Below, piece by piece: positions 2,433 through 33,597 of a DNA stretch of 64,000 nt (within the stretch, counting starts at the first letter, position 1; each line of letters begins with the position of its first letter). Location: assembly GCA_030649735.1 (NCBI GenBank), contig JAUSFL010000023.1:15698-79697 (forward strand), written 5' to 3'. The position numbers and the translations under genes are program-made. Origin of the DNA: Candidatus Iainarchaeum sp. GTDB lineage: Archaea; Iainarchaeota; Iainarchaeia; Iainarchaeales; UBA10191. The notes beneath the pieces are model-generated. The model did not search any database, had not been told where the DNA came from, and saw nothing but the letters and a program-made list of their open reading frames with translations.

Positions 2433-4812
2433 CCTGAAAGGGTTTGTTTTCAGCATTGACGCTGTTTTGGCCGTGATTCTAGTAAGCTCTGCAATTCTTG
2501 CAACGCAAACAAGCTTTTTCCAGTATTCCCATTCGTCAATCAATGTTCTTGCAAAGTCTGCTGATGACGTTTTTTCGACTTTGCAGGACACTGGGTTTTT
2601 GTTTCAGGAAACAGACAGGAATTCACTGGACAATGCCGCGCTTTCCTTTTACTTCAAGGCGAAGGGGCTTTTGCCTTCAAACTCTGGCCTTCAAGTCAGG
2701 CTTTCACAATATAATTTGAATAAGGAATCCTGCAGGCAATTCAAGGATTTTAACAACTGTTTTGCTTTGGCTGGAGAAGTCATTGTCGGTGATGCAATTG
2801 ACAGCAATGAAATTGCTTTTGGAAAGCGGTTGATTGTTAAAAAGCAAAGCCCCGGAGACTGCAATATTTCCGCGCAGTTTTCAGACTTGCCGCTAAATCA
2901 GTTTCCAAAAGAGTTTGGCAGTGCTTTTTTTGACACTGCTTTTTTTGCTTCTGGCGGCGATTTGAACATCGGAGTTGCCGCAAGCTATAACAGCCTTCCT
3001 TTAATGTCTGGAAGTTCAATACAGTGTGATGAGAACATTCATGTTGACTTGAATGCTTATTTTCCAACCACTGGAAGGCCTCCAATAAACATGATTTTTG
3101 GATCTGACAAGAGCTTGAGCATGGGGGAATGCACCATTGCCAAAGGAATTGTTTTGGACTCAAATAAAGGAACAACCTCTTCAACTTTCGTCAAAATTCA
3201 CGAGTTTTCTTTAAGCGACAATAATGCTTTTGATGTCTTGCTTGAATGGTCTGCCACTTGTTCTTCAAACTGTCCTGAAATGTACGTTGTCGCGCCTAAT
3301 GGCACTACAAAGTATGGCCTTGGTTTTCCTTCAACTACTGACTTGAATGTCAAAACTTGCAATTCTGGAGACTCTTTGAATTCCAAGGCTTATTATTTGG
3401 GCAAGTCCACTTTTGACTATTTGGCAGTTAACTCTAATGTCGGAAATTCTAAGTCCGGAACTTGGCAGGTTTGGGCAAGAAAGTCCGGAAGCGCGATTGA
3501 TTACAACTTGACTGTCAAAAGAATAAGGAATGATTATTTTTCCTCAAGCACTCTGACTGTTTTGCCTTGGAATAATCCAATTTCAAAGATTGAACTGGCC
3601 CAGGTTTTTATTGCAAGGTTTAATGAAAATGCTTTGTGGGATCCTGTTGCTGACGAGTATGCTTATGCTGAAATTGGCACTGACAAGAAAAGTGGCGGTA
3701 ATGGTTCTTCAATACAACCTAGCAGTGGCTTAAGGCCTATTGGAGACCAGGCCTTCAAAAGCCAGTTGAAGAATCTTTCCCCAGTAAGCGTTGATTCTTC
3801 GGCTTATGGGTTTGCAATGTCTGGCGACGACATGATGAATGATATTCTTGCAGACCAGCCGTCTGCCGAAGTCCGGGCAGAAATTATTTTTGGAGATGCA
3901 AATAGTTATGGAACTCCAAATGCGGTCGCTGCCGCGCAGGATGCAAAGGATAGGAACATTGTTGTTTTCACTGTTGGCTTTGGAAGAGACCATAATTTCA
4001 CTGACTTGAAAATGATTTCCGCAATTACTGGTGGGACTTTTTACAATGCTTCTGACGAGAATGCTTTGCTTTCAATTTTTGATACTATTGCGCAGAGGAT
4101 TTTTGCGCTTTCGGGCTACGCCTACGGAATTGGAATTCCTGACTTGAATATTACAATTCCAGTCCTTGCTGGCAGTGAAATTAACACTCCAGCAAGCAAT
4201 TTTCAGGGAACTTTTGAGCTTTCTTCAAGTTCTTTGCGATTTTTCATCACAGACATTAATATTTTGAGTCCTTGGTATGGATCTTATAATATTTCGTTCC
4301 CCTGCACAATGTCTTGCGCTTCGGAAAAAAAATACCTTCCGGAATTTGGAACAAATTACTCTTACACAGACACTAATGGAAATTATTACGCGAATAATTT
4401 TGACATAAACAAGTACATTGACGTTAATTTTTTGTATAGGGACTTAAGGCTTTCTTTTATGAATGCCGAATTGTTTGATATTAACCATTTGACTGTCACT
4501 GCACAGCTTTCTAATGTCGGCGACTTGAACACTTTAAGTTATCCTTCAGGAATGACTGACTTGAACTTTTCAGTAAATGGCTCTTTTGCCGGAACCAAGA
4601 CAATTCAAGGGCTTTGTGGGCATTTGAATCCTTTATGCGGCCTTTGGTTTGACTTAAACAGCGTGGAATTGTTTCGGGAGGGTGAAATTGAGGTTTCTAT
4701 TGACGCAAATAAGGCGCGTGATTGTCCTTTGGGGAATTCTGTAAAAATAATCTGCAATTCTCAATTAATCACCCAATTTTATGTTGTTGAGTTTGGAGTG
4801 TGGGAAAAATGA
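2374..4812 (+). CDS. large pilin-like protein with class III signal peptide and a vWA (von Willebrand factor A) domain; TadG-like pseudopilin / tip adhesin candidate
   Basis: N-terminus KGFVFSIDAVLAVILVSSAILA is prepilin-like. A MIDAS DxSxS motif (MIFGSDKSLSM) lies near nt 3115. The vWA C-terminal signature NIVVFTVGFG...ITGGTFYNASDENALLSIFDTIAQRI lies near nt 3960-4090. An alternative TTG start is at 2401. Confidence 0.6.
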   Translation: MSTIKGWKALSIAQSTGKNSLKGFVFSIDAVLAVILVSSAILATQTSFFQYSHSSINVLAKSADDVFSTLQDTGFLFQETDRNSLDNAALSFYFKAKGLLPSNSGLQVRLSQYNLNKESCRQFKDFNNCFALAGEVIVGDAIDSNEIAFGKRLIVKKQSPGDCNISAQFSDLPLNQFPKEFGSAFFDTAFFASGGDLNIGVAASYNSLPLMSGSSIQCDENIHVDLNAYFPTTGRPPINMIFGSDKSLSMGECTIAKGIVLDSNKGTTSSTFVKIHEFSLSDNNAFDVLLEWSATCSSNCPEMYVVAPNGTTKYGLGFPSTTDLNVKTCNSGDSLNSKAYYLGKSTFDYLAVNSNVGNSKSGTWQVWARKSGSAIDYNLTVKRIRNDYFSSSTLTVLPWNNPISKIELAQVFIARFNENALWDPVADEYAYAEIGTDKKSGGNGSSIQPSSGLRPIGDQAFKSQLKNLSPVSVDSSAYGFAMSGDDMMNDILADQPSAEVRAEIIFGDANSYGTPNAVAAAQDAKDRNIVVFTVGFGRDHNFTDLKMISAITGGTFYNASDENALLSIFDTIAQRIFALSGYAYGIGIPDLNITIPVLAGSEINTPASNFQGTFELSSSSLRFFITDINILSPWYGSYNISFPCTMSCASEKKYLPEFGTNYSYTDTNGNYYANNFDINKYIDVNFLYRDLRLSFMNAELFDINHLTVTAQLSNVGDLNTLSYPSGMTDLNFSVNGSFAGTKTIQGLCGHLNPLCGLWFDLNSVELFREGEIEVSIDANKARDCPLGNSVKIICNSQLITQFYVVEFGVWEK

Positions 4813-22227: not shown

Positions 22228-23226
22228 ATGAAACAAGTCAAGGCTTCAGCTCCGGGAAATCTGTTCTTTGCAGGAGAGCACGCAGTGGTTTACAATTATC
22301 CAGCAATTGTCACTTCCATTGGAAAGCGGACTTTTGTCACAGCTTCTTCAAGAGAAGATATTATAGTTGAAATTGAGAGTAGTGCTTTTGGAATTGCGAC
22401 AGCAAAAAACCGCAATGGCCAGTTGATTGAGCGCTCCATGGAAAAGAAAGAATTGAATTCTGTAATGGATTTGTGCGAGAAAGTAATTCAAGACTTCAAG
22501 ATTTCTGACGGCTTTTCCTTAAAGATTGAGTCCGAAATTCCAGTAGAGTCTGGAATGTCTTCAAGCACTGCTGTTTTGTGCGCTAGTTTTTGCGCAATCA
22601 CTGAATTGTTCGGTCAGCACGTAAAGCCTGAAAAGTATTTTGATTCTTTGTATCCTTTGCAGGTGAAAATTCACGGTGGAAAGGCTTCAGGCGCGGAAAT
22701 TTACTCTTCTTCAGTTGGTGGATTCAACAGGATTCAAAAAGTTGAAGAGAACGGAAAAGTCGTGCAGAAAGTAAAGTCTTTGGGAAAGCAAGAGTTTTCA
22801 GTGGTTATTGGGAACACTAAAGTGCGCGGCCCAACAGCACTTGTTGTTGGAGTTCATCACCCAAGTATAATTAAGAGATTTCCAGAATTAGTTCGGGATT
22901 CTTGGAAAAAAATTGAAAAAATCGTGAAGTCAATGCAGTCAGCAATAAAAAAAGGGGATGTGGTAAAAGTTGGAAAGTTAATGACTGCAAACCAGAAAGT
23001 TCTTTCCAAAATTATGCTTTCTCACCCAAAATTGGACGATTGCATTACTGAAGCCTTGAAGGCCGGTGCTTTAGGAGCAAAGCTTTCTGGCGGAGGCTGG
23101 GGCGGAGTAATGTTTGCCTTAGTGCGCAAGGAAGACGAGGATAAAGTTGCAAAGGCAATTGAAAGCACTGGAAGCGAGGCAATAATTACCGAAATTGGCG
23201 GAGAAGGAGTCAGAGTTGAGGAATAA
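22228..23226 (+). CDS. mvk: mevalonate kinase (GHMP kinase family)
   Basis: SAPGNLFFAGEHAVVY (motif 1) and PVESGMSSSTAV (GHMP ATP-binding motif). Confidence 0.8.
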   Translation: MKQVKASAPGNLFFAGEHAVVYNYPAIVTSIGKRTFVTASSREDIIVEIESSAFGIATAKNRNGQLIERSMEKKELNSVMDLCEKVIQDFKISDGFSLKIESEIPVESGMSSSTAVLCASFCAITELFGQHVKPEKYFDSLYPLQVKIHGGKASGAEIYSSSVGGFNRIQKVEENGKVVQKVKSLGKQEFSVVIGNTKVRGPTALVVGVHHPSIIKRFPELVRDSWKKIEKIVKSMQSAIKKGDVVKVGKLMTANQKVLSKIMLSHPKLDDCITEALKAGALGAKLSGGGWGGVMFALVRKEDEDKVAKAIESTGSEAIITEIGGEGVRVEE

Positions 23227-23235
23227 TTTGATATT

Positions 23236-23793
23236 ATGAAAAAGAAAATTATCGTTGGAATTACTGGCGCTTCTGGAATAGAATACGCTATCGAGTTCTT
23301 GAAGGGACTGAAAGAGCGCAAGGAAATAGAGACTCACTTGATAATTAGCGAGGCCGCAAAGAAAGTTCTCGAAATAGAGACCGAATTCAAAAGCAAGGAT
23401 CTGGAAAAGCTTGTTGACTTTGTTTACGACAACAAAAACATGGCTGCTTCAGTAAGTTCTTCGAGCTTTAAGATTGATTCAATGATTGTAATTCCAGCTT
23501 CTGTGAAAACCTGCTCTGCAATAGCGAATGCTTACACTGACGAATTGATTGTGCGCTGCGCTGATAACATGTTAAAGTTTAAGAAAAAATTAGTTGTTTG
23601 TATTAGAGAAACGCCATTAAGTTCCGCTTGCCTGAAAAATTTGCACGAGCTTTCACTGATGGGTGCAGTTGTGATGCCTTTAAGTCCTGGCTTTTATTTG
23701 AATCCAAAGTCTAAAAAAGACTTAATCTTTTTTATGATTGGTAAGTGCCTTGATTCTTTGGAAATTGACAATGACTTCAAAAGGTGGAAATAA
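23236..23793 (+). CDS. ubiX: UbiX-family flavin prenyltransferase (prenyl-FMN synthase)
   Basis: MKKKIIVGITGASGIEYAIEFLK... is the typical UbiX/Pad1 flavoprotein N-terminus. About 185 aa. Confidence 0.8.
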   Translation: MKKKIIVGITGASGIEYAIEFLKGLKERKEIETHLIISEAAKKVLEIETEFKSKDLEKLVDFVYDNKNMAASVSSSSFKIDSMIVIPASVKTCSAIANAYTDELIVRCADNMLKFKKKLVVCIRETPLSSACLKNLHELSLMGAVVMPLSPGFYLNPKSKKDLIFFMIGKCLDSLEIDNDFKRWK

Positions 23794-25097
23794 TGGGTTT
23801 TAGGGATTATTTGCAAAAGCTTGAAAAGTCTCACAAGTTGCAAAAAATTAGCGCGTCTGTTTCAAAGCATTTGGAAGCTTCAGGGATTCTAAAAGCCATT
23901 GAGCCTAAGGCAGTTCTTTTTGAAAAAATCAAAGAAAGCAATTTTAAAGTGGCTGGAAATGTTTTTCCGACAAAAGATTCAATAGCCGATTATGTGGGTT
24001 GCGAGACAAGTGAATTGATTTCAACAATCAATAAAGCAATCTCTAACATGAAAGCCCCTGAGGAAACAAAGAATGCAAAATGCCAGGAAGTCGTTGAAGA
24101 AATCGTTGACCTTGATAAATTGCCTATTTTATTCCATTGTGCGCATGATGGTGGAAATTACATAAGCTCTGGGATTGTTGTTTCAAAAGACAAAGAATTC
24201 GGGCAAAACCTTGACTTTCACAGGATGATGCAGATTGGAAAGAATAAGTTTTCAGTAAGGATTGTTAAAGAGCGAAATTTTGACACTTTCTTGAAGAAAA
24301 ACGGCGAAATGGACATTGCTGTTTGCATAGGAAACGGAGCAAATGTTCTGGTTGCTGCTGCAACTTCAATAGAAATTGGAAAAAACGAGCTTGGAATTGC
24401 AAATGCGCTAGAGCCTTTGACAGTCACTCGCGCTAAAACTTCGGACTTGCTTATCCCTTCAGACTGCGAGTTTGTGATTGAAGGAAGGATTGTGCTTGAA
24501 GAAAAGGCAAATGAAGGTCCGTTTGTTGACTTGACTGAAACTCTTGATGTTGTAAGGCAAGAGCCAGTTCTTACAGTAAAAAAAATAACCCACAGGAAAG
24601 ACGCAATCTGGCAGGCACTGCTTCCAGGTGCATTAGAGCACAAGGTTTTGATGGGAATGCCGCGCGAACCCACAATTTTCAAGAAAGTCAACGAGGCAGG
24701 AGTGAAATGCATTGATGTTAATGTAAATCCTGGAGGCTGCAGCTGGTTGCATGCTATTGTGAAGATCGACAAGCAAAATGAAGACGATGGAAAAAAGGCA
24801 ATTGACGCTGCATTTGAAGGCCATAAGAGCTGCAAGCATATTTTTATTGTCGACAAGGACATTGACATTTACAATCCATTGGATGTGGAGTGGGCAATGG
24901 CAACGCGCTTTCAGGCAGATGTGGACTTTAAAATGAAAGCCAGGGAAAAAGGCTCAAGCCTTGATCCAAGCGCTGATCCTGAAACCCACTTTACCACAAA
25001 ATGTGGTTTGGACTGCACTGCATCCTTGCAGGTCAAAGGAAAGAATTTTTCCAAAGAGCCTTTCCCGCAGGTTGACTTGAAAAAGTATTTGAAGTGA
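23784..25097 (+). CDS. UbiD-family decarboxylase; candidate anhydromevalonate-phosphate decarboxylase of the alternative archaeal MVA pathway
   Basis: About 437 aa with UbiD-like organisation, directly downstream of ubiX and upstream of the aconitase-X pair. Functional assignment rests on gene context. Confidence 0.65.
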   Translation: MEIMGFRDYLQKLEKSHKLQKISASVSKHLEASGILKAIEPKAVLFEKIKESNFKVAGNVFPTKDSIADYVGCETSELISTINKAISNMKAPEETKNAKCQEVVEEIVDLDKLPILFHCAHDGGNYISSGIVVSKDKEFGQNLDFHRMMQIGKNKFSVRIVKERNFDTFLKKNGEMDIAVCIGNGANVLVAAATSIEIGKNELGIANALEPLTVTRAKTSDLLIPSDCEFVIEGRIVLEEKANEGPFVDLTETLDVVRQEPVLTVKKITHRKDAIWQALLPGALEHKVLMGMPREPTIFKKVNEAGVKCIDVNVNPGGCSWLHAIVKIDKQNEDDGKKAIDAAFEGHKSCKHIFIVDKDIDIYNPLDVEWAMATRFQADVDFKMKAREKGSSLDPSADPETHFTTKCGLDCTASLQVKGKNFSKEPFPQVDLKKYLK

Positions 25098-25103
25098 TTT
25101 GAA

Positions 25104-26282
25104 ATGAAACTGACTGCTGACGAAAAGAAAATGCTTGCAGGCAAGCACGGGAATGCAGTAAAGAAGTCAATGGAAATTCTAGTGGCGCTTGGAGAGATTT
25201 TTGGAGCTAAAAGGCTGATTGATGTTGCAAGCGTTCAGGTTGCTGGAGTAAGCTATCATAATTTGGGCGATGCTGGATTGGAATTCTTGGAAGAGCTTGC
25301 AAAGGATGGCAAAGTCAAAGTATTGACTACTTTGAATCCTGCAGGAATGGACTTGGAAAACTGGAAGAACTTGGGAATTTCCCCAGAGTTTGCCGAAAAG
25401 CAAAAGAAAGTTATTGATGCCTTTGAAAAATTAGGCGTTGTAACAACTTGCACTTGCACTCCTTATTTTGTGGGAAACTTGCCGCGATTTGGAGAGCACA
25501 TTGCATGGAGCGAAAGCAGTGCTGTCGCATTTTCAAATTCTATTATTGGGGCGTTCACAAACAAGGAGGGTGGACCAAGTGCTTTGGCTGCTGCATTGAC
25601 TGGAAAAACTCCTGAATATGGTCTGCATTTGAAAGAAAACAGACAAGCTCAAGTCTTAGTAAATGTAAAAGCAAGGCTTGAAGGAACGCGGGATTTTGGG
25701 GCATTAGGTTATGCGATTGGAAAAAAGATTGGCACAAAAATTCCATTGATTAAAGGAATTAAGAAAGCAAGCATTGAAGAACTGAAAAATTTCAGCGCGA
25801 GCATTGCAACTTACGGCGGAACCGGGCTTTATCATATTGCGGGCATTACTCCTGCAAAAACACAAGCCCCTAAGGAAATAGTTTCAATAGGCGAATCAGA
25901 CATTGAAGCCGCAAAAACAGCATTAAATGACGCGGTTGAAGGTGAAATTGACCTTGTTGCAATAGGCTGCCCGCATTGCTCAATTAAAGAATTGCAAAAT
26001 ATTGCAAAGCTTTTGAAAGGGAAGAAAGTTAAAAAGGAAATTTGGATTTGCGTTGCAAGACCAGTGAAAAGCATTGCTGACAAAATGGGATATTCAAAAA
26101 CAATTGAAGAGTCAGGGGCAAAATTTGCATGCGACACTTGCATGGCAGTCGCTCCGTTGAAAGGCAGGTTTAAGGGGCTGGCTACAGACTCTGCCAAGGG
26201 CTGTTTTTATGGCAGGGGCAGCAATTCTTTCAAGACAAAATTTTGCACAATGGAAGAATGCATTCAAGAGGCGATTGAATGA
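25104..26282 (+). CDS. aconitase X catalytic subunit (AcnX large subunit); candidate phosphomevalonate dehydratase large subunit
   Basis: About 392 aa with an AcnX/DUF521-like Cys/Ser-rich pattern (CTCTPYF..., GCPHCS, CDTCM). Confidence 0.7.
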   Translation: MKLTADEKKMLAGKHGNAVKKSMEILVALGEIFGAKRLIDVASVQVAGVSYHNLGDAGLEFLEELAKDGKVKVLTTLNPAGMDLENWKNLGISPEFAEKQKKVIDAFEKLGVVTTCTCTPYFVGNLPRFGEHIAWSESSAVAFSNSIIGAFTNKEGGPSALAAALTGKTPEYGLHLKENRQAQVLVNVKARLEGTRDFGALGYAIGKKIGTKIPLIKGIKKASIEELKNFSASIATYGGTGLYHIAGITPAKTQAPKEIVSIGESDIEAAKTALNDAVEGEIDLVAIGCPHCSIKELQNIAKLLKGKKVKKEIWICVARPVKSIADKMGYSKTIEESGAKFACDTCMAVAPLKGRFKGLATDSAKGCFYGRGSNSFKTKFCTMEECIQEAIE

Positions 26283-26668
26283 ATCTTAAAGGAAGGAAAA
26301 TCTGCGCTGGAAAAGCCAAAGGCGAGGCAATTGTTTCAAATCAAGGAATTTCATTTTATGGCGGCGTAGACCCTAACACTGGAATTGTTGTTGAAAAAGG
26401 CCACGAGCTTGAAGGCAAAAGCATTGCAGGAAAAATTCTTGTTTTTCCGCAAGGAAAAGGCAGCACTGTAGGGAGCTACACAATGTACCGCCTGAAAAAG
26501 AATGGAAAAGCGCCTTTAGCAATTATAAACAAGGAATGCGAAACAATAGTTGCTGTTGGGGCAATAATTTCAGAAATTCCCTGCATTGACAAGATTGACA
26601 TTTCCCAAATAAAAACCGGCCAAAATTTAGCGGTTGATGCAGAGAACGGAATTGTGGAAGTGCAATAA
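26279..26668 (+). CDS. aconitase X swivel-domain subunit (AcnX small subunit); candidate phosphomevalonate dehydratase small subunit
   Basis: About 129 aa, GKAKGEAIV...GKILVFPQGKGSTVGSY pattern of the DUF126/AcnX swivel domain. Overlaps the large-subunit stop. Confidence 0.7.
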   Translation: MNLKGRKICAGKAKGEAIVSNQGISFYGGVDPNTGIVVEKGHELEGKSIAGKILVFPQGKGSTVGSYTMYRLKKNGKAPLAIINKECETIVAVGAIISEIPCIDKIDISQIKTGQNLAVDAENGIVEVQ

Positions 26669-27474
26669 TGCCTGTTCCATTGTATATTATGAAGGTTGGC
26701 GGTTCTGTTTGCACTAAAAAGGCAGAGAACAAATTTGAGGCAAATCGCGAATTAATAGCAAAAGTCGCTTCTGAAATAAAGCGCGCGCAAGCAAATAAAG
26801 AATTCCAATTAATTTTAGTCCATGGCGCAGGGCCCTTTGGGCACACTAATGTGAAAAATTACGGCATTAATGATGGAATAAAGACAGAACAGCATGTTGA
26901 AGGATTTATCAAAACTCACTTGGCAATGCAGGAATTAAATTCTGTGTTTTTGCAAGAGTTTGAAAACGCAGGCTTGAAGGCGATTGCAATTGACCCGACA
27001 GCTTGCATTGTTCAAAACAACAAGAAAATCTCAAAGTTTGAAACTTTACCTCTAGAACTTCTTTTGAAAATGAACTCTAAAATAATTTCCATAATGTACG
27101 GCGACATGGTTGTTGACTTGAAAATTGGCGGCAGTGTAGTGAGCGGCGATGCGATAATTTCTTACCTTGCACACCGATTGAAGGCAAGCAAGATTCTGCT
27201 TGGGACTGATGTTGCCGGAGTTTTTGAGGCAGACCCTAAAAAATTTCCCAACGCCAAACGAATTGAAATAATTGACAAGAAAAATTTCAATCAAATAATA
27301 AAAAACGTGACTGGATCTAATGCAATTGACGTTACGGGGGGAATGAAAGAGAAACTCTTGAAATTACGGCAGCAGCTTTCTGGCTGCAATGCACTGATTT
27401 TTGACATGCGCATTGCCGAAAACACTATCAAAGCGCTTGTCGGAAGCGTTGAAGGAACTAAAATTCTACTTTGA
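26668..27474 (+). CDS. ipk: isopentenyl phosphate kinase (amino-acid-kinase fold)
   Basis: IMKVGGSV...ILVHGAGPFGH motif characteristic of IPK. About 268 aa. Confidence 0.8.
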   Translation: MPVPLYIMKVGGSVCTKKAENKFEANRELIAKVASEIKRAQANKEFQLILVHGAGPFGHTNVKNYGINDGIKTEQHVEGFIKTHLAMQELNSVFLQEFENAGLKAIAIDPTACIVQNNKKISKFETLPLELLLKMNSKIISIMYGDMVVDLKIGGSVVSGDAIISYLAHRLKASKILLGTDVAGVFEADPKKFPNAKRIEIIDKKNFNQIIKNVTGSNAIDVTGGMKEKLLKLRQQLSGCNALIFDMRIAENTIKALVGSVEGTKILL

Positions 27475-28278
27475 TTTCTTGAATGCTTTTTCAATTTCGG
27501 CAATTAACTTAGTTATTGGCTGGGAATTCTCGAATATTTGGTCATAAATTTCTGAAAAATCCTTTAATCCTTTAATGCAAATCCAACAGCTTGAATGCAT
27601 ATTGGATGGAAGAGTAAATCCAAGCATTAATTCTTTTTCTGTTATTGCCATTGAATTAATGCTTCTTAAGGGGGCATATCTCAATTCCATGTTTTCTAAT
27701 TTGGAGAGTTTTTTCAGGTTTTCAAATGCTTGCTTGTCCTTTTTTTCTATTATTGTGGATTTTGTCAAATCCCCAGCAATCAAGTATTTGACAAAAATTT
27801 CGTTTTTTTCTATTTTAGCTATCAAAGCATCCAAATATTTGCCCATATCCGGTTCAAAATAACGTTCACTCTCAAAAATAAGCCCCGGAGTTTTCGAGCT
27901 AAGCTTTATGTTTTTTGCTTTGCTTATAATTTTACAAAGATGATTCCAACTTTCCTTTCGATTAAAGAATATTTTTGCATTGACCCAGTCTTTGCATTCT
28001 TTTCCTGACTCGTAATTTTCTAAAACTCTTCTAGTAAAGGCATTTATTTCTTTGAGCCAAATTGGGTTTAAACTATATTCTCTTTCCTTTTTTGTGATTA
28101 TGCCGTCATCCAAAAGCACAGTTAAACACTTGTGAATGGCTTGATATGACAGATTTCTTCCAAGATTCCTTTGAACTTTATGGTAAACTTCTTTTGCATT
28201 CAAAGGCCATTCTTCAGAAAGAACCGCAATTATGTTTTTACTAACTGATTCTTTTTGCATCAAGAAACTTAAAACCAT
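27466..28278 (-). CDS. winged-helix transcriptional regulator candidate, divergent from idi and tail-to-tail with ipk
   Basis: N-terminal wHTH-like region (NAKEVYHKVQRNLGRNLSYQAIHKCLTVLLDDGIITKKEREYSLNP) plus a ~180-aa C-terminal domain of unknown function. Confidence 0.5.
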   Translation of the reverse strand: MVLSFLMQKESVSKNIIAVLSEEWPLNAKEVYHKVQRNLGRNLSYQAIHKCLTVLLDDGIITKKEREYSLNPIWLKEINAFTRRVLENYESGKECKDWVNAKIFFNRKESWNHLCKIISKAKNIKLSSKTPGLIFESERYFEPDMGKYLDALIAKIEKNEIFVKYLIAGDLTKSTIIEKKDKQAFENLKKLSKLENMELRYAPLRSINSMAITEKELMLGFTLPSNMHSSCWICIKGLKDFSEIYDQIFENSQPITKLIAEIEKAFKKSK

Positions 28279-28359
28279 AAAATACTCAAGGGTAATAAGC
28301 TTAAAATTAGAGAACTCTGATTTAAATACTATAAATTTAGTGGAATATTCAAATTAGGG

Positions 28360-28456
28360 TTAAAATGCCTTTAAACTAATTAACCTTTAAAACCTCTAAA
28401 AAGGTTTTAAAGTTTCAAAAACAAGCCAAATTTTTGAAACCTTTAAAAACTCCTTT
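28360..28456. promoter_or_regulatory. intergenic region with repeated CCTTTAAA(A)C elements including a 10-bp inverted repeat
   Basis: Inverted repeat CTTTAAAACC (28385-28394) / GGTTTTAAAG (28403-28412) with an 8-nt spacer. Further copies at 28368-28376 and 28440-28450. Candidate operator and/or TATA elements of the divergent promoters. Confidence 0.5.
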
Positions 28457-28471
28457 TTGGATAGTTTTATC

Positions 28472-29527
28472 ATGGCTTTAAAAAAGAAGGAAATCCAGAC
28501 TGTTTCTCGAAAGAGAGAGCACATTGACATTTCGTTAAAGCATGACGTGCAGTTCAAGAAAAAGACCACTGGCTTTGAGGATGTAGAGCTGGAGTACTTG
28601 GCTTTGCCTGAATTGGATTTTAAGGAAATTGACACTTCAACAAAGTTTTTGGGCTTTAATTTTTCATTCCCACTGTTTGCCAGTTCTATCACTGGCGGCC
28701 ATGCTGATGTTAAGAAAATCAACGAGGAAATAGCAAAGGCCTGCAGCAATGCAGGAATTGGAATGGCTTTGGGAAGCATTCGAGCAATGCTAGAGGACAA
28801 GAAAGTTGCAGATTCTTACAAAGTCCGAAAGTTTTTGCCTAAAGGATTCTTGGCGGGAAATTTAGGAGTTTCCCAATTGAAGGATTATTCTGCACAGCAG
28901 ATTGGAAAAGCGCTTGATGAATTGCAGGCTGACGCGTTGTTCATTCATTTGAACGCTGCCCAAGAGGCATTGCAAAAGGATGGAACTCCAAACTTCAAGA
29001 ACTGCATCAAGCAATTATATGATTTTTGCGAGGCTTTTGAAAAGCCGGTTATTTTGAAGGAAGTGGGTAATGGAATTTCCGGAACCACTGCCGAAATGCT
29101 AAAGGACGTTGAGTTTGAGGCTTTGGATGTTGCGGGCGCTGGCGGGACTTCCTGGACTGCAATTGATTCTTTAAGGGGCAATAAGGAAATTGCGGAAACT
29201 TTTTGGGATTTTGGAACCCCGACTGCAGTGAGCTTGATTCAGGCAAGAATGGTTTTTGATTCCACTCCAATAATCGCTTCTGGAGGAATCCGCTCCGGGC
29301 TTGACGTTGCAAAAGCAATCACTTTAGGCGCTGACTTGGCTGGAACTGCAATGCCTGTACTGCATGCGCAGCACAAGGGTGGAGTGAAGGGAATTGAAGA
29401 ATTGTTCTCAAAAATGCAGAAAGAATTCAGGATTGGAATGTTTTTGACTGGCGCAAAAAAGCCCGAGGAATTAAAGGGCAGAAAGTATTACTTGTTTGGA
29501 AAAACCGCGGAATGGGTCGAGCAATAA
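28472..29527 (+). CDS. fni: type 2 isopentenyl-diphosphate isomerase (FMN-dependent IDI-2)
   Basis: TIM-barrel FMN-oxidoreductase pattern: SSITGGHA, ILKEVGNGIS, ASGGIRSGLDVAKAITLGADL. ATG at 28472. Confidence 0.8.
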   Translation: MALKKKEIQTVSRKREHIDISLKHDVQFKKKTTGFEDVELEYLALPELDFKEIDTSTKFLGFNFSFPLFASSITGGHADVKKINEEIAKACSNAGIGMALGSIRAMLEDKKVADSYKVRKFLPKGFLAGNLGVSQLKDYSAQQIGKALDELQADALFIHLNAAQEALQKDGTPNFKNCIKQLYDFCEAFEKPVILKEVGNGISGTTAEMLKDVEFEALDVAGAGGTSWTAIDSLRGNKEIAETFWDFGTPTAVSLIQARMVFDSTPIIASGGIRSGLDVAKAITLGADLAGTAMPVLHAQHKGGVKGIEELFSKMQKEFRIGMFLTGAKKPEELKGRKYYLFGKTAEWVEQ

Positions 29528-29992
29528 ATGCCTGCCAGAAAGCCGGCAAAGCCTGGAAGAAAAGAATTGATAAAGCAGATTAGAATGTTTGGCAGCGACG
29601 GCTACACTCCTGCTGGTTTAAGGGCTGAAAGCGCAAGTTTTAGGCAATCTGAGAGTCTTTTCAAGAGAACAGATTATCGCCCAGAGTATGCGGAGAATTC
29701 CAGAAGAGCTGCGATTGCCTCAAGGTTTGCTGCAATGCAAAAGTCAGGGGCTTTGGAACGAATTAAATTAAGGGCTGCTGCCGGAAGAAAAAGCAAGGCT
29801 TCAAGAAAAATGGTAGTTGCAAATATTAAAAGTTTGAGGAAGAAAAGTTATTCTCCGGAAGAATTAAGGGCTGCAAGCAGGCAGCTTAGCGCAAGAGGCC
29901 ATAAGGAACTGGCTTTGGCCACTCGTTTTTCAGCAATGGAAAAGTCCGGCTCTTTGAAGAGATTGAAAAAAAACTCTAAAGCAAGGCGCTAA
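29528..29992 (+). CDS. small basic protein with an internal repeat (RFAAMQKSGALERIKL / RFSAMEKSGSLKRLKK); unknown function
   Basis: Begins MPARKPAKPGRK. Shares the N-terminal motif and the R[FY]A[AS]M motif with two nearby ORFs. Confidence 0.5.
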   Translation: MPARKPAKPGRKELIKQIRMFGSDGYTPAGLRAESASFRQSESLFKRTDYRPEYAENSRRAAIASRFAAMQKSGALERIKLRAAAGRKSKASRKMVVANIKSLRKKSYSPEELRAASRQLSARGHKELALATRFSAMEKSGSLKRLKKNSKARR

Positions 29993-30098
29993 TTTCTTCA
30001 TTTTTCGCTTTTTTCCAAGGGCTTAAATACCAAAAGGCTTTTATTAACTGTAATCAGTAAATAATACAGTTTTGCGTGTTTTTCTAGAGTGATTTTTA

Positions 30099-30860
30099 AT
30101 GGCTGCTGAATCGATTGAATTGCTGGAGCAATTAGGGCTTACAGAATACGAGGCCAAGACTCTTTCCACATTGTTCAGGCTTAAGGAAACAGAGGCTCCG
30201 GAAATCAGCCGCTTGGCCCAGGTTCCAAAAACAAGGGTTTATGATGTATTGGAGCGCTTGACAAAGCGCGGCCTGGTGATTGAAATTTACGGCAGGCCGA
30301 AAAAATACCGCGTTATGGAGCCGGAAACTGTCTTTGAAGAATTGATTAATGGAAAAAAGGCGGAGATTAAAGGCCTTGAGGAAAAGGCAAGGATTGTCAA
30401 AAACTTGTTTGGCAATGTGAAGCTTTCTGAAGAAGAGTCCGGGGAAAAAGTCATGAAAGTCAAGGACAAGAATGACTTTTTGCGGATTCTCGCGCAAGAA
30501 ATTGATTCCGCAAAAAGCGAGGTTGTGGCTTTCTCAAAGCTTGACGAAAACCAGGCAATCTTGAAGGAAGCATTGCATAATGCCTTGGAAAGGAATGTTA
30601 ACGTGAAAATGCTTTCAAAAGTCCCAAAGTCTTTAAGCGCTGAGGCAAAGCTTTTTTCAAAGAATGGAATGTCCTTGAGAGACCATGATCATGGAATGAA
30701 CGCTTACATCATTGATGGAAAAAAAGTCATTTTGGCATTGAGCGATTTTTCAAAGGAAAAGCCAGAATACCATTTTACTATCTGGAACAACCACAAGCCA
30801 ATGGTCAACACAATCCAGAAATACTTTGACCACTGCTGGGCCCAAGGCAAAGATGTTTGA
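30099..30860 (+). CDS. TrmB-family transcriptional regulator
   Basis: N-terminal TrmB HTH (LGLTEYEAKTLSTLFRLKETEAPEISRLAQVPKTRVYDVLERLTKRGLV) plus a C-terminal effector domain. Confidence 0.75.
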   Translation: MAAESIELLEQLGLTEYEAKTLSTLFRLKETEAPEISRLAQVPKTRVYDVLERLTKRGLVIEIYGRPKKYRVMEPETVFEELINGKKAEIKGLEEKARIVKNLFGNVKLSEEESGEKVMKVKDKNDFLRILAQEIDSAKSEVVAFSKLDENQAILKEALHNALERNVNVKMLSKVPKSLSAEAKLFSKNGMSLRDHDHGMNAYIIDGKKVILALSDFSKEKPEYHFTIWNNHKPMVNTIQKYFDHCWAQGKDV

Positions 30861-31084
30861 AAATGCCCGCCAGAAAAACTCCTTTTTTGAAAAGAAAGAA
30901 CAACAAGCGCGTTGTTCTAAGGCATGCTGAATTCTTCCAAACAAGGCTGCGCGAGGACAACTTGTTTTTTGGAAAAATGGTTCTGGACGCGTCAAAGGCT
31001 GCAACGGGTAAAAAAAAGTCTTCTTTGCGCAGGATTGCGATTGCAAGGCGTTATGCCTCAATGCTGCAAGGGAAAAAGCAGTGA
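30857..31084 (+). CDS. small basic protein, paralogous to the N- and C-terminal motifs of 29528..29992
   Basis: MKMPARKTPFLKRK...IAIARRYASMLQGKK repeats the MPARK and RxA[AS]M motifs. Confidence 0.4.
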   Translation: MKMPARKTPFLKRKNNKRVVLRHAEFFQTRLREDNLFFGKMVLDASKAATGKKKSSLRRIAIARRYASMLQGKKQ

Positions 31085-31140
31085 TTAAGTCCGGCAAAGC
31101 CGCAATCTAATTTATTAATTCTCAAGCGCTATTTTTTTGC

Positions 31141-31842
31141 ATGCCTGCAAAAAAGCCAAGGCTTTCCAATACTAGGAATTTTTTGAAGAAAATGCCGCAG
31201 CTTGCATTTCGCGGAACAACGCTAGACCATATTCCTCAAGAAATACATTATGGAAAAAAGCGCGTTGAGGGAATTCCTCACTTTTTCATTACTACTGAAG
31301 ACTTGTTTCATGGAAAGACAAGAAACATTGTGCACAGGCTTTACTCCACTGTTGCAGAGTCAATGAACAGCGCGTTCCATTATTCTGGAGCGAAAATTGG
31401 GTTTGAAAACCATTCTTTGACTGTTTCAAAGCCGTCAAAAACTCCAGTCGTTCTTTTGGTAGTCAATCCAAGGAAAGGCAAGGGAGCTCATGTTGAAAGC
31501 TGGAATTTTCCTGAAGAAAGAAGGGCTTTTTCCACAACTAATATTGCCACTGTGAAAAAAGCTAAAGACAACAGAATCCTTAATGTTACTGAAATTCCGC
31601 AGTTTGGAAAGAACGCGAAAGTCTTGCCCATTGAAATTTCAGAAAAAGACTTTGCCGACGCGAATAAAGCTTGGGAAGCTTACAGGCAGAAAAACATTGA
31701 ATTGTTCAGCAAAGGCTATGCTGAAGGCCACAGTGCCATCAATTTTGCCTACAATTTTTTGATAAGGCGTGTGACGCAAAAGGCATTGCCTTTAATCAGG
31801 CAGAATGCAATGTTTGGGCGGGCAGTTAGGAAAAAGCCTTAA
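31141..31842 (+). CDS. hypothetical protein beginning MPAKKP (possible third member of the MPA[RK]K family)
   Basis: 233-aa ORF. Its N-terminus MPAKKPRLSNTRNFLKK resembles the other two. No other motif recognised. Confidence 0.45.
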   Translation: MPAKKPRLSNTRNFLKKMPQLAFRGTTLDHIPQEIHYGKKRVEGIPHFFITTEDLFHGKTRNIVHRLYSTVAESMNSAFHYSGAKIGFENHSLTVSKPSKTPVVLLVVNPRKGKGAHVESWNFPEERRAFSTTNIATVKKAKDNRILNVTEIPQFGKNAKVLPIEISEKDFADANKAWEAYRQKNIELFSKGYAEGHSAINFAYNFLIRRVTQKALPLIRQNAMFGRAVRKKP

Positions 31843-31887
31843 ATGCCTTTCACCTTTAATTTAATTGATTGAGTTTTAGTGGTAATT

Positions 31888-33597
31888 ATGGGATTTGAGG
31901 ATGTTGCTTACAGGTATGCCATAAAGAATGCCTTTTTGCATGCTGGAAAGGCAGACCTTGCGGCAGTTGTTGGAAAAGTCATTGCGTTAAAAAAAGACCT
32001 GGATTTTGTCTCTGCAATGCCGCGAATTAAGGAAATTGTCGCGCAAGTGAATGCAATGTCTTTTGAGCAAATCAAGGAAGAGTATGAAAAGTTTTCTGAA
32101 ACAGGCTACGAGCTAAAGCCAAAAGACAAGGAAGAAGGCCTTCCACCTTTAGACTGGGCAGAGAAAGGCGAGGAATTGGTTGCAAGAATTGCGCCAAACC
32201 CTTCAAGTGTAATGCACTTGGGGCATGCGAGGCAAGTTATTCCAAACTATTACTATGTTGAAAAATATGGCGGAAAATTCATTTTGCGTTTTGACGACAC
32301 TGACCCTAAAGTGAAAAGGCCAATGCCAATGCAAGAGGCAAAAAAATGCTATCTTGAAGATTTGGAATGGCTTGGAGTGAAGAAAATTTCAACAATATTC
32401 TTTGCATCAGATAGGATTGAAAGATATCACGAGATTATTGGAAAGCTTTTTGAAATGGGAAAAGCATATGTTTGTGACTGCGAGCCTGAAAAATGGCGTG
32501 AACTAACTAAAAACTCCAAGGCTTGTCCTTGCCGCGAGCTTTCAGTGGAAGACCAGATTGCAAAATGGAAGAAAATGCTTTCCCACGAGTTTAAGGAAGG
32601 CCAAGTTGTTGCAAGAGTTAAGACTGACTTGAATGACAAGGACCCGAGCATTAGGGACTGGTGGCTTGCAAAAATTGTTGACAATCCAGACCACCCAAAT
32701 CCCGTAACCAAGGGAGTTCATGTTTGGCCGTCTTATAATTTAGCTTCAGTGGTTGATGACCATGATTTTGGAGTCACTTTAATCATTCGCGGACAAGAGC
32801 ACGCGCAAAACGCAACAAAGCAAAAATGGGTTGCTGATTATTTTGGCTGGGTTTACCCGCACACTATCACGACTGGTAGAATAAGGCTTGAAGGCTCTTT
32901 AATGAGCAAGAGCAAAATCAAGGCGGCAATTGAAGCCGGAGAGCTTTCCGGAGTTGATGATCCAAGGGTTGGAACAATCCAGACTTTGCGCAGGCGTGGG
33001 ATTACTCCAGAGTCTTTGCAGAAAGTAATTTTGAATTTGGGAATTAATCCTAATGATTCAGTAATTAGTGTTGACGCTTTGTATGACGCGAATCGCAAAA
33101 TCATTGATCCAATTTCTGACAGAGTAAGCTTTGTTGAAGATCCAATTCAATTGGACGTGCAGTTTTCTCCAAGGTTTGAGGTTAAAGTTCCAATCCATCC
33201 TGACTTTCCAGAACGCGGGGAAAAAGTTTTTGCGCTTTCTGAAGGCAGCCAAATTTTCACTGTCTCTAAAAAAGAGCTTGAAAAGCTCAAGGTTGGAGAG
33301 ACTTTCCGCTTGAGGAATGCGTACAATGCAAAGCTTGTTGACTTGAAAGACAAGGTGGCTTTTGCGCATTTCACTGGCTTTGAAAAGATCAACAAGATAG
33401 TTCTTGTCTGGCTTTTGCCTGAAGAATTGGTTGATGCTGAAGTGACAATGGATGATGCTGAAAAAGTTGAAGGCGTTGCTGAATCTTTCATTCTGGAAAA
33501 GAAAGCCGGCGACCGCGTGCTTTTGGAAAAGTTTGGCTATTGCATTGTTGACGAATGCTCGAAAAAGCTTGTGAAGCTTTGGTATTCGCACAAATAG
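31888..33597 (+). CDS. gltX: glutamyl-tRNA synthetase (archaeal/eukaryal type)
   Basis: HIGH-class motif (SVMHLGHAR) and KMSKS-like motif (LMSKSK). About 570 aa. Confidence 0.85.
   Translation: MGFEDVAYRYAIKNAFLHAGKADLAAVVGKVIALKKDLDFVSAMPRIKEIVAQVNAMSFEQIKEEYEKFSETGYELKPKDKEEGLPPLDWAEKGEELVARIAPNPSSVMHLGHARQVIPNYYYVEKYGGKFILRFDDTDPKVKRPMPMQEAKKCYLEDLEWLGVKKISTIFFASDRIERYHEIIGKLFEMGKAYVCDCEPEKWRELTKNSKACPCRELSVEDQIAKWKKMLSHEFKEGQVVARVKTDLNDKDPSIRDWWLAKIVDNPDHPNPVTKGVHVWPSYNLASVVDDHDFGVTLIIRGQEHAQNATKQKWVADYFGWVYPHTITTGRIRLEGSLMSKSKIKAAIEAGELSGVDDPRVGTIQTLRRRGITPESLQKVILNLGINPNDSVISVDALYDANRKIIDPISDRVSFVEDPIQLDVQFSPRFEVKVPIHPDFPERGEKVFALSEGSQIFTVSKKELEKLKVGETFRLRNAYNAKLVDLKDKVAFAHFTGFEKINKIVLVWLLPEELVDAEVTMDDAEKVEGVAESFILEKKAGDRVLLEKFGYCIVDECSKKLVKLWYSHK

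Follow-up and report, generated by a model that had tools for sequence, protein, structure and literature searches.

Two Paralogous Small Basic Proteins Flank a TrmB-Type Regulator

A 64-kb stretch of a Candidatus Diapherotrites (DPANN) metagenome-assembled genome (contig JAUSFL010000023.1; this whole stretch is hereafter called the window) carries two open reading frames (ORFs), A and B, that very probably encode real, paralogous proteins and that lie on either side of a gene for a TrmB-family regulator. Both proteins are small and extremely basic, and both may bind nucleic acids. ORF A (154 aa; positions 29528-29992, + strand) starts with MPARKPAKPGRK, ORF B (73 aa counted from MPARK; 30863-31084, +) is the downstream neighbor of the regulator gene, and a third ORF, C (233 aa; 31141-31842, +), starts with MPAKKPRLSNTRNF. 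An upstream TTG at 30857 would give an MKMPARK reading of ORF B. In the NCBI annotation, all three are hypothetical proteins (Q7R70_03270 for A, 03280 for B, and 03285 for C). An earlier, sequence-only reading had described three neighboring ORFs with MPA(R/K)K starts. This description was confirmed, and all sequences quoted in it were present at their coordinates, including the two internal motif copies of ORF A, IASRFAAMQKSGALERIKL and LATRFSAMEKSGSLKRLKK, and the C-terminal end of ORF B, IAIARRYASMLQGKKQ.

Six-frame translation of the window yielded three occurrences of MPA[RK]K, one at the start of each ORF, and three of R[FYW][AS][AS]M, all within ORF A or B. All six fell between 29.5 and 31.2 kb. 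When the window was resampled with a first-order Markov model (200 trials), mean numbers of occurrences were 0.19 and 0.33, respectively, and three occurrences were never obtained. The start regions of A, B, and C had 14-15 of 17 nucleotides in common.

ORF A is an in-frame tandem of two units of ~70 aa, with unit 1 covering aa 1-85 (29528-29782, +) and unit 2 covering aa 86-154 (29783-29989, +). The repeat spans the whole protein and extends beyond the motif: the two parts aligned over 76 columns with 32% identity (BLASTP, E 7e-10). The RFAAM core of the unit-1 motif (AAIASRFAAMQKSGALERIKL) is located at 29723-29737 (+) and the RFSAM core of the unit-2 motif (LALATRFSAMEKSGSLKRLKK) at 29924-29938 (+). 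ORF B represents one unit with a truncated motif helix, in which the RYASM core (31049-31063, +) is soon followed by the end of the protein (RRIAIARRYASMLQGKKQ, then stop). An alignment of eight units showed a Met-Pro start with a Lys/Arg-rich tail, a variable middle, and a conserved C-terminal amphipathic helix. The consensus of this helix was h-A-h-A-[STR]-R-[FY]-[AS]-[AS]-M, usually followed by x-[KQ]-[SA]-G-x-h-[EK]-R-h-K (h = hydrophobic).

A direct match between A and B was weak (E 0.008, 12 residues). A bridge between them was provided by an 85-aa protein, ending in SRKIAVARRFAAMQQAGFFERVKKRQQKQ, that is encoded at the position of B in the related metagenome contig L007. This protein matched A unit 1 (E 3e-9), A unit 2 (E 2e-5), and B (E 9e-5) and, because it matched both ORFs, A and B were considered genuine paralogs. 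At the position of A, the same contig encodes P0008, a one-unit protein of 79 aa with 59% identity to A unit 2. With these two L007 proteins denoted A' and B', a profile of the unit recovered A, A', B, and B' only, among 3,457 six-frame ORFs from the window and 24 loci. The likeness between A and B was seen at the protein level and not at the DNA level. A Met-Pro/basic N-terminus and the motif helix were both present in A (in two units), B, P0008, the 85-aa protein of L007, and the database relatives P0002 and P0006, while C and its relative P0004 carried the family N-terminus only, without motif helix. All family members had an isoelectric point (pI) of 11.4-12.0 and a net charge of +16 to +29, and contained neither Cys nor Trp. 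For A and B, values of 11.5 and 11.9 for pI and of +29 and +17 for net charge agree with their earlier description as very basic proteins. The proposal, made in the sequence-only reading, that A, B, and C form one paralog family held for A and B, while the likeness of C to them beyond the first five residues was not significant. With three units in two genes in total, "local paralog expansion" was too strong a term.

Coding Status and Evolutionary Rate

A comparison of A with its 90%-identical copy in contig L001 showed 27.5 synonymous changes (102 sites) and 19.5 non-synonymous changes (360 sites), corresponding to a dN/dS of 0.17, and the reading frame was intact through 47 substitutions. 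These results bear on the alternative that the ORFs are chance open frames in purine-rich spacers and their motifs DNA-level repeats or regulatory elements. Short ORFs, an A-rich composition, and the absence of a database family are in line with this alternative, as is the presence of inconsistent short basic ORFs in distant spacers between TrmB and the glutamyl-tRNA synthetase gene (GluRS; L014 vs. L018). However, per-site synonymous changes outnumbered non-synonymous changes in A, the ORFs were kept in L001, L005, and L007, the paralog likeness resides at the protein level, and no Rfam family matched the region. In addition, NCBI and JGI gene callers annotated the ORFs independently. An origin as chance frames is therefore most improbable, the interpretation of the ORFs as non-genes was rejected, and non-coding status of A and B is essentially excluded. 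Lack of conservation in relatives and a non-coding frame signal had been named beforehand as observations that would count against the sequence-only reading. Instead, the A and B ORFs were retained in related contigs and substitutions in them were frame-specific.

Selection was unevenly distributed over the two proteins. In A, dN/dS relative to L001 was 0.03 at aa 1-35 and 0.08 at aa 54-154, while the intervening hypervariable patch (aa 36-53; 29633-29686, +) showed 22 differences in 54 nt, as compared to ~6% divergence in the rest of the gene. In B, comparison with L005 indicated a dN/dS of ~0.2 at both ends and saturation of codons 11-45. Flanking genes, used as a baseline, showed dS values of 0.25-0.6 and dN values of 0.01-0.07. 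In view of this flanking dS, the variable segments drift at a roughly neutral rate, while the N-terminal tail and motif helix are constrained. TrmB was highly conserved (dN/dS 0.05-0.08). Between A unit 2 and A' of L007, dN was 0.37, as compared to 0.03 for TrmB and for Idi2, the type-2 isopentenyl diphosphate (IPP) isomerase gene upstream of A. The family therefore evolves ~10-fold faster than its neighbors, and the 59% identity of A unit 2 and A' is found while the flanking proteins are 95-97% identical.

Both variable patches (29633-29686, A aa 36-53, and 30893-30997, B aa 11-45) were sharply bounded. Within them, synonymous and non-synonymous sites were saturated, with 41-50% nucleotide differences, and the adjoining codons were 90-97% identical to the closest relatives. 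Near-neutral drift is sufficient to account for these patches. Divergent alleles may alternatively have been imported into them by recombination, a possibility with which the pS of 0.65 between A unit 2 and A' (0.31-0.39 in flanking genes) is compatible. Hypermutation or the action of a diversity-generating retroelement was considered unnecessary as an explanation, as the patches had diverged about as much as neutral sites. With respect to the template repeat of such an element, no second copy of either patch was found in 29400-31900 nor, by six-frame tblastn, in the window. Substitutions in the patches spanned more than one base type.

Distribution and Gene Turnover in Related Contigs

A TrmB-anchored scan of metagenome contigs yielded 17 loci. 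TrmB followed by GluRS was conserved across these loci, apart from a few that differed or were cut off too early, and the genes upstream were usually S2 and Memo or Idi2. Genes of the A/B type were confined to the contigs nearest to the window, in which the TrmB protein was ~95% identical or more, and the family thus reaches over a very narrow clade at roughly genus level. The order in the window, which is identical to locus L006, is Idi2-A-TrmB-B-C-GluRS. The positions of A and B in this order were kept in three other contigs: L001, which runs from the end of Idi2 through A to the spacer upstream of TrmB; L005 (= L008), with TrmB-B-GluRS; and L007, with Idi2-A'-TrmB-B'-GluRS. No A/B-type genes were present in the sister lineages represented by L002, L003, and L024 (TrmB-C-GluRS), by L009 (TrmB-GluRS, with a 74-nt spacer), and by L010 (Idi2-TrmB-GluRS, with an unrelated 184-aa basic ORF between TrmB and GluRS).

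Two events of gene turnover could be followed among the closest relatives. The A genes of the window and L007 differed in length by exactly 216 nt (72 codons), which corresponds to one unit. L005 lacked gene C together with its upstream spacer (758 nt), with breakpoints in a 9-nt direct repeat, GGAAAAAGC, of which the left copy lies at the end of B (31071-31079, +) and the right copy at the end of C (31829-31837, +). In L005 (880-900), B runs directly into the sequence that follows the right repeat copy (GGAAAAAGCCTTAAATG) and ends in GKKP with the last codon and stop of C. Since C occupies the same slot in the more distant L002 lineage, the difference represents a deletion in L005, and the loss of C in this contig is a microhomology-mediated deletion, resolved to the nucleotide.

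An S2-Memo (or Idi2)-TrmB-GluRS order was also found in contigs whose TrmB was only 45-79% identical (loci L008-L024; TrmB at ~3001-3760 in most). Throughout, the TrmB-GluRS spacer was a slot of variable content, either empty or occupied by short basic ORFs or by unrelated basic proteins 184-233 aa in length. In L013, L014, L018, and L020, the small basic ORFs that follow TrmB were considered as relatives and found to be unrelated to A, B, and C. The sole resembling pair among these distant spacer ORFs was a 47-aa ORF of L014 and a 64-aa ORF of L020, which share RNL(I/L)..F.NRGRL (E 1.3e-4). L014 and L018 have near-identical TrmB proteins and different ORFs in the TrmB-GluRS slot, a mismatch which indicates that most short ORFs of that slot may be spurious.

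The TrmB Regulator and the Expression Context of A and B

The protein encoded between A and B (253 aa; 30099-30860, +) was assigned to the TrmB family by its PF01978 winged-helix helix-turn-helix domain (70.5 bits against a cut-off of 25.6, E 1.1e-19), in agreement with the earlier statement that A and B flank a TrmB regulator. Its matches to the NCBIfam models TrmBL1, TrmB, and TrmBL2 were all far below their cut-offs. Like TrmBL2 (TK0471; PMC3031468, PMC4877046), it is short and highly conserved, has a housekeeping neighborhood, and can be aligned with the TrmBL2 equivalog model (NF041141) from end to end (8-263/264). However, the score of 49.6 bits is far below the cut-off of 530, and the protein is therefore not a TrmBL2 ortholog but TrmBL2-like in length only.

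At the Idi2-A junction (TAAATG), the ATG of A abuts the TAA of Idi2 in the window, L001, and L007. At the TrmB-B junction (TGAAAATG), the distance from the TrmB stop codon to the start of B is 2 nt in the window and L005 and 11 nt in L007. With starts this close to the preceding stop codon (the next base for A, 2 nt for B), both genes are probably co-transcribed with, and translationally coupled to, the genes ahead of them. The spacer between A and TrmB (29993-30098, +) contains a T-rich tract just after the A stop codon, followed by A/T-rich, TATA-like boxes upstream of TrmB. Its last ~60 nt were 100% identical between the window and L001 and thereby better conserved than the adjoining coding DNA. 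From these features we infer two transcription units, Idi2-A and TrmB-B; C has an A/T-rich upstream spacer of its own. At ~30 nt before the TrmB start, the A-TrmB spacer also carries the perfect palindrome ACTGTA-N12-TACAGT (30047-30070). This sequence occurs once in the window (0 expected), is conserved in L001 and L007, has no exact match in more distant TrmB loci, and is a candidate operator for autoregulation by TrmB.

A and Idi2 share a reading frame, with only the TAA between them, so that read-through would give an Idi2-A fusion, and this arrangement is kept in L001 and L007. Such a read-through fusion was rejected: the frame match follows merely from an ATG that abuts a stop codon, Idi2 is already full length, and in L010, which lacks A, it ends at the same place.

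Idi2 (28472-29527, +; TAA stop at 29525-29527) was identified by Pfam FMN_dh (E 7.9e-26) and by gene calls on the identical contig L006, and is the last enzyme gene of an archaeal mevalonate-pathway cluster. GluRS (31888-33597, +), downstream of C, was identified by Pfam tRNA-synt_1c (E 4e-63) and synteny. The archaeal-type mevalonate-pathway cluster directly upstream of A is complete (22228-29527, +). According to Pfam calls from L006, it includes a GHMP kinase (mevalonate kinase), a UbiX-like flavoprotein, a UbiD-like decarboxylase, large and small AcnX subunits (phosphomevalonate dehydratase type), an AA_kinase (isopentenyl phosphate kinase), and Idi2. It is interrupted by a gene for a 270-aa winged-helix protein on the - strand (27466-28278).

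ORF C

ORF C encodes a basic protein (pI 10.3) with a predicted alpha/beta structure, based on a low-confidence model with a predicted local distance difference test (pLDDT) score of 50. BLASTP of A against C gave E 0.17 over 27 aa, so that likeness beyond the start was not significant, and the unit profile did not match C at E <= 10. An ortholog of C (P0004, 44% identity) was found in the same TrmB-C-GluRS slot in a more distant lineage. Near-invariant segments of the two proteins were the N-terminal MPAKK..R.FLK.MPQLAFRGTTL and a C-terminal YNFLIRR..QKALP block. On sequence grounds, C appears to be an older basic orphan that is not demonstrably a member of the A/B family.

A 26-nt in-frame resemblance (77%) was observed between 29567-29592 and 31792-31817, which correspond to A codons 14-22 (LIKQIRMFG) and C codons 218-226 (LIRQNAMFG). 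An internally deleted copy of C as the source of the 5' part of A would be in keeping with this resemblance, which is not statistically significant. With a BLASTP E of 0.3, this resemblance is at chance level and was rejected as a sign of common origin.

Database and Structure Searches

Word-indexed homolog searches with A, C, and B returned, besides each query, a single relative: P0002 (90%), P0004 (44%), and P0006 (64%), respectively. An exhaustive phmmer search with A against 1.84 billion representative proteins added P0008 as the sole further relative, bringing the total to two clusters at 50% identity. Library-wide sensitivity is low for proteins this short, and the search with A did not find B. 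Among 185,579 species-representative genomes in GTDB, no match was obtained to the C alignment or to the pattern A[STR]RF[AS]AM[QE][KQ]. No sequence related to A or C was found among IMG/VR viral contigs, which gave no sign of a viral origin. Six-frame tblastn did not identify a source of A or B in another frame or gene of the window.

The earlier statement that the proteins have no characterized homologs was borne out by the absence of significant matches in Pfam, NCBIfam, PHROGs, PADLOC, and PDB. For A, B, and C, the best E in the first four of these was >= 7e-4, with all matches far below cut-offs, and the unit profile had no match among PDB sequences at E <= 10. Detectable sequence similarity to solved ribosomal or chromatin proteins is thereby excluded. 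An AlphaFold2 model of A, built from a five-sequence alignment, was all-helical, with a mean pLDDT of 68.7 and values of 84-92 for unit 2. In a Foldseek search of PDB with this model, no match at E <= 0.001 and no specific fold was found.

The only non-family match to A below E 1e-3, apart from the even weaker P0009, was P0007, a CpxP/Spy/ZraP-like helical repeat protein (Pfam Metal_resist, E 1e-8) that shares with A unit 2 a helix-cap segment, L-R-x-x-G/S-x-[ST]-P-[EQ]-E-[IL]-R-A-A. Its match covered 35 residues, with a score inflated by the summing of five repeats, and P0007 matched 63 unrelated Pfam families in the same way. Its likeness to A was therefore treated as helical and compositional resemblance rather than homology. 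P0009, a repeat or compositional match, was likewise rejected as a homolog.

Proposed Function and Alternative Explanations

With an estimated probability of about 0.4, A and B act by non-specific binding of nucleic acids. According to this proposal, binding would occur via Lys/Arg surfaces and the N-terminal Pro-Ala-Lys/Arg tail, while a helical hairpin or dimer would be held together by hydrophobic residues in a stripe along the motif helix (I/L, F/Y, M). The two would then be accessory proteins, nucleoid-associated or acting as nucleic-acid chaperones, and may work together with the TrmBL2-like protein. The sequence-only reading had suggested nucleic-acid-binding or lineage-specific factors. 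Nucleic-acid binding is proposed here from charge and composition, with the net charge of +16 to +29, the absence of Cys and Trp, the all-helical prediction, the Pro-Ala-Lys/Arg tail, and the location of B in the transcription unit of a DNA-binding regulator all pointing in this direction. TrmBL2-type proteins are chromatin proteins and global repressors in Thermococcales (PMC3031468, PMC4877046).

Several small basic nucleoid-associated proteins of archaea (Cren7, Sul7d, MC1, and Sac10a-type; PMC11894787) resemble A and B in being encoded by single small genes in one lineage, with masses of 7-17 kDa and a very high pI. Electrostatic nucleic-acid binding would be a further common trait, presumed for A and B from their sequences. 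There is, however, no similarity in sequence or fold: the known proteins are mostly beta-rich or winged-helix, abundant, and conserved across an order or phylum, whereas A and B are predicted to be all-helical, are restricted to roughly one genus, and evolve fast. Lys/Ala/Pro-rich tails with PAKK/KPAA repeats bind the DNA minor groove in linker histone H1, mycobacterial HupB, and AlgP. The N-termini PARKPAKPGRK, PAKKPR, and PARKTP resemble one or two copies of such a PAKK-type tetrapeptide but do not form the repeat array of H1 and HupB, and the remainder of A and B is unrelated to H1 or HU folds. To our knowledge, no small basic partner proteins have been described for TrmBL2.

A number of observations weigh against a role of A and B as accessory nucleic-acid-binding proteins. 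High pI is by itself weak evidence, and the binding is something that we infer. The family is absent from sister lineages with the same TrmB (L002, L009, and L010), which indicates that TrmB does not need it. Its fast evolution (dN 0.37 vs. 0.03) would be unusual for a core chromatin component, and A is coupled to an isoprenoid enzyme gene instead of to a nucleic-acid function. Moreover, Diapherotrites already encode histones (PMC6136690).

The same fast evolution, narrow distribution, and absence from sister lineages keep three other explanations alive. One of these, that A and B are dedicated partners or modulators of TrmB, is rather unlikely. In this case A and B would act on the TrmB dimer by docking of the amphipathic helix (as co-repressor, anti-repressor, or filament cap, for example) and would not themselves bind nucleic acids. 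Both slots adjacent to TrmB hold a family member wherever flanks are visible in the clade (window, L001, L005, and L007), the start of B lies 2-11 nt behind the TrmB stop, and the combination, in B, of conserved short N- and C-terminal peptides with a near-neutral middle is typical of short linear interaction motifs. Yet the sister lineages manage with the conserved TrmB and no such genes, and A is attached to the Idi2 transcript, from which the T-rich tract and a separate promoter-like region part TrmB. A role as lineage-specific RNA- or ribosome-associated proteins, for instance as RNA chaperones or additional ribosomal proteins, was judged to be equally unlikely. Size, extreme pI, and the lack of Cys and Trp recall small ribosomal proteins, and the wider neighborhood in relatives is rich in translation genes (S2, GluRS, L7Ae, S28e, L24e, and IF-2). 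Against this, there was no sequence match to any PDB chain, archaeal ribosome structures included, or in Pfam and NCBIfam, and a narrow distribution with rapid gain and loss of units and genes does not fit structural ribosome components.

Slightly less unlikely, though still doubtful, is the explanation that A and B are young, locally born genes of marginal function, perhaps derived from duplicated 5' ends of C plus spacer, which evolve near-neutrally and ride on the transcripts of their neighbors. Their restriction to contigs with at least 95% identical TrmB, the absence of family members beyond two clusters of representative proteins and from GTDB genomes, and the saturation of the B middle and of A aa 36-53 would all be expected of such genes. 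The presence of a whole unit in A of the window that is missing in L007, the dN of 0.37 between A unit 2 and A' against a flanking dS of 0.40-0.55 (ratio ~0.8), and the 17-nt start in common with the older gene C point in the same direction. Marginal function is difficult to reconcile, however, with clear purifying selection on the motif and N-terminal segments (dN/dS 0.03-0.2), with a motif that is kept between otherwise unalignable paralogs, and with an intact frame in four independent contigs; for a local birth, the other frames of the window yielded no source sequence.

Significance

A related but unlikely scenario would combine the proposed nucleic-acid-binding function with a recent origin: a new family of TrmB-associated nucleoid proteins would have come into being within one Diapherotrites genus and grown there by modules. 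Its helical unit of ~70 aa would have a local origin, for which the 5' end of the older gene C may have provided the seed, and would have been copied to both flanks of TrmB. It would then have been duplicated or lost in-frame, giving two units in A of the window and one in L007, and retained by selection on two short peptides alone. If true, a reduced DPANN genome would here offer a tractable natural case of how new genes originate and of function driven by short motifs.

The A/B family is an ordinary lineage-specific orphan family of a common kind, small basic proteins, and as such a modest curiosity. Only a few closely related metagenome contigs carry it and, as long as no activity has been demonstrated, it is of limited wider importance. 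The locus nevertheless records gene turnover at nucleotide resolution, in the form of in-frame gain or loss of a unit and deletion of C between 9-nt repeats. Uncharacterized orphans make up a large share of the genes in the small genomes of DPANN archaea. Here, one set of such orphans was shown to be real and under selection, its unit, motif, and boundaries were defined, and its position was fixed around a conserved TrmB-type regulator. "Hypothetical proteins" are thereby turned into a testable hypothesis, namely that they may be accessory nucleic-acid-binding or TrmB-associated proteins.

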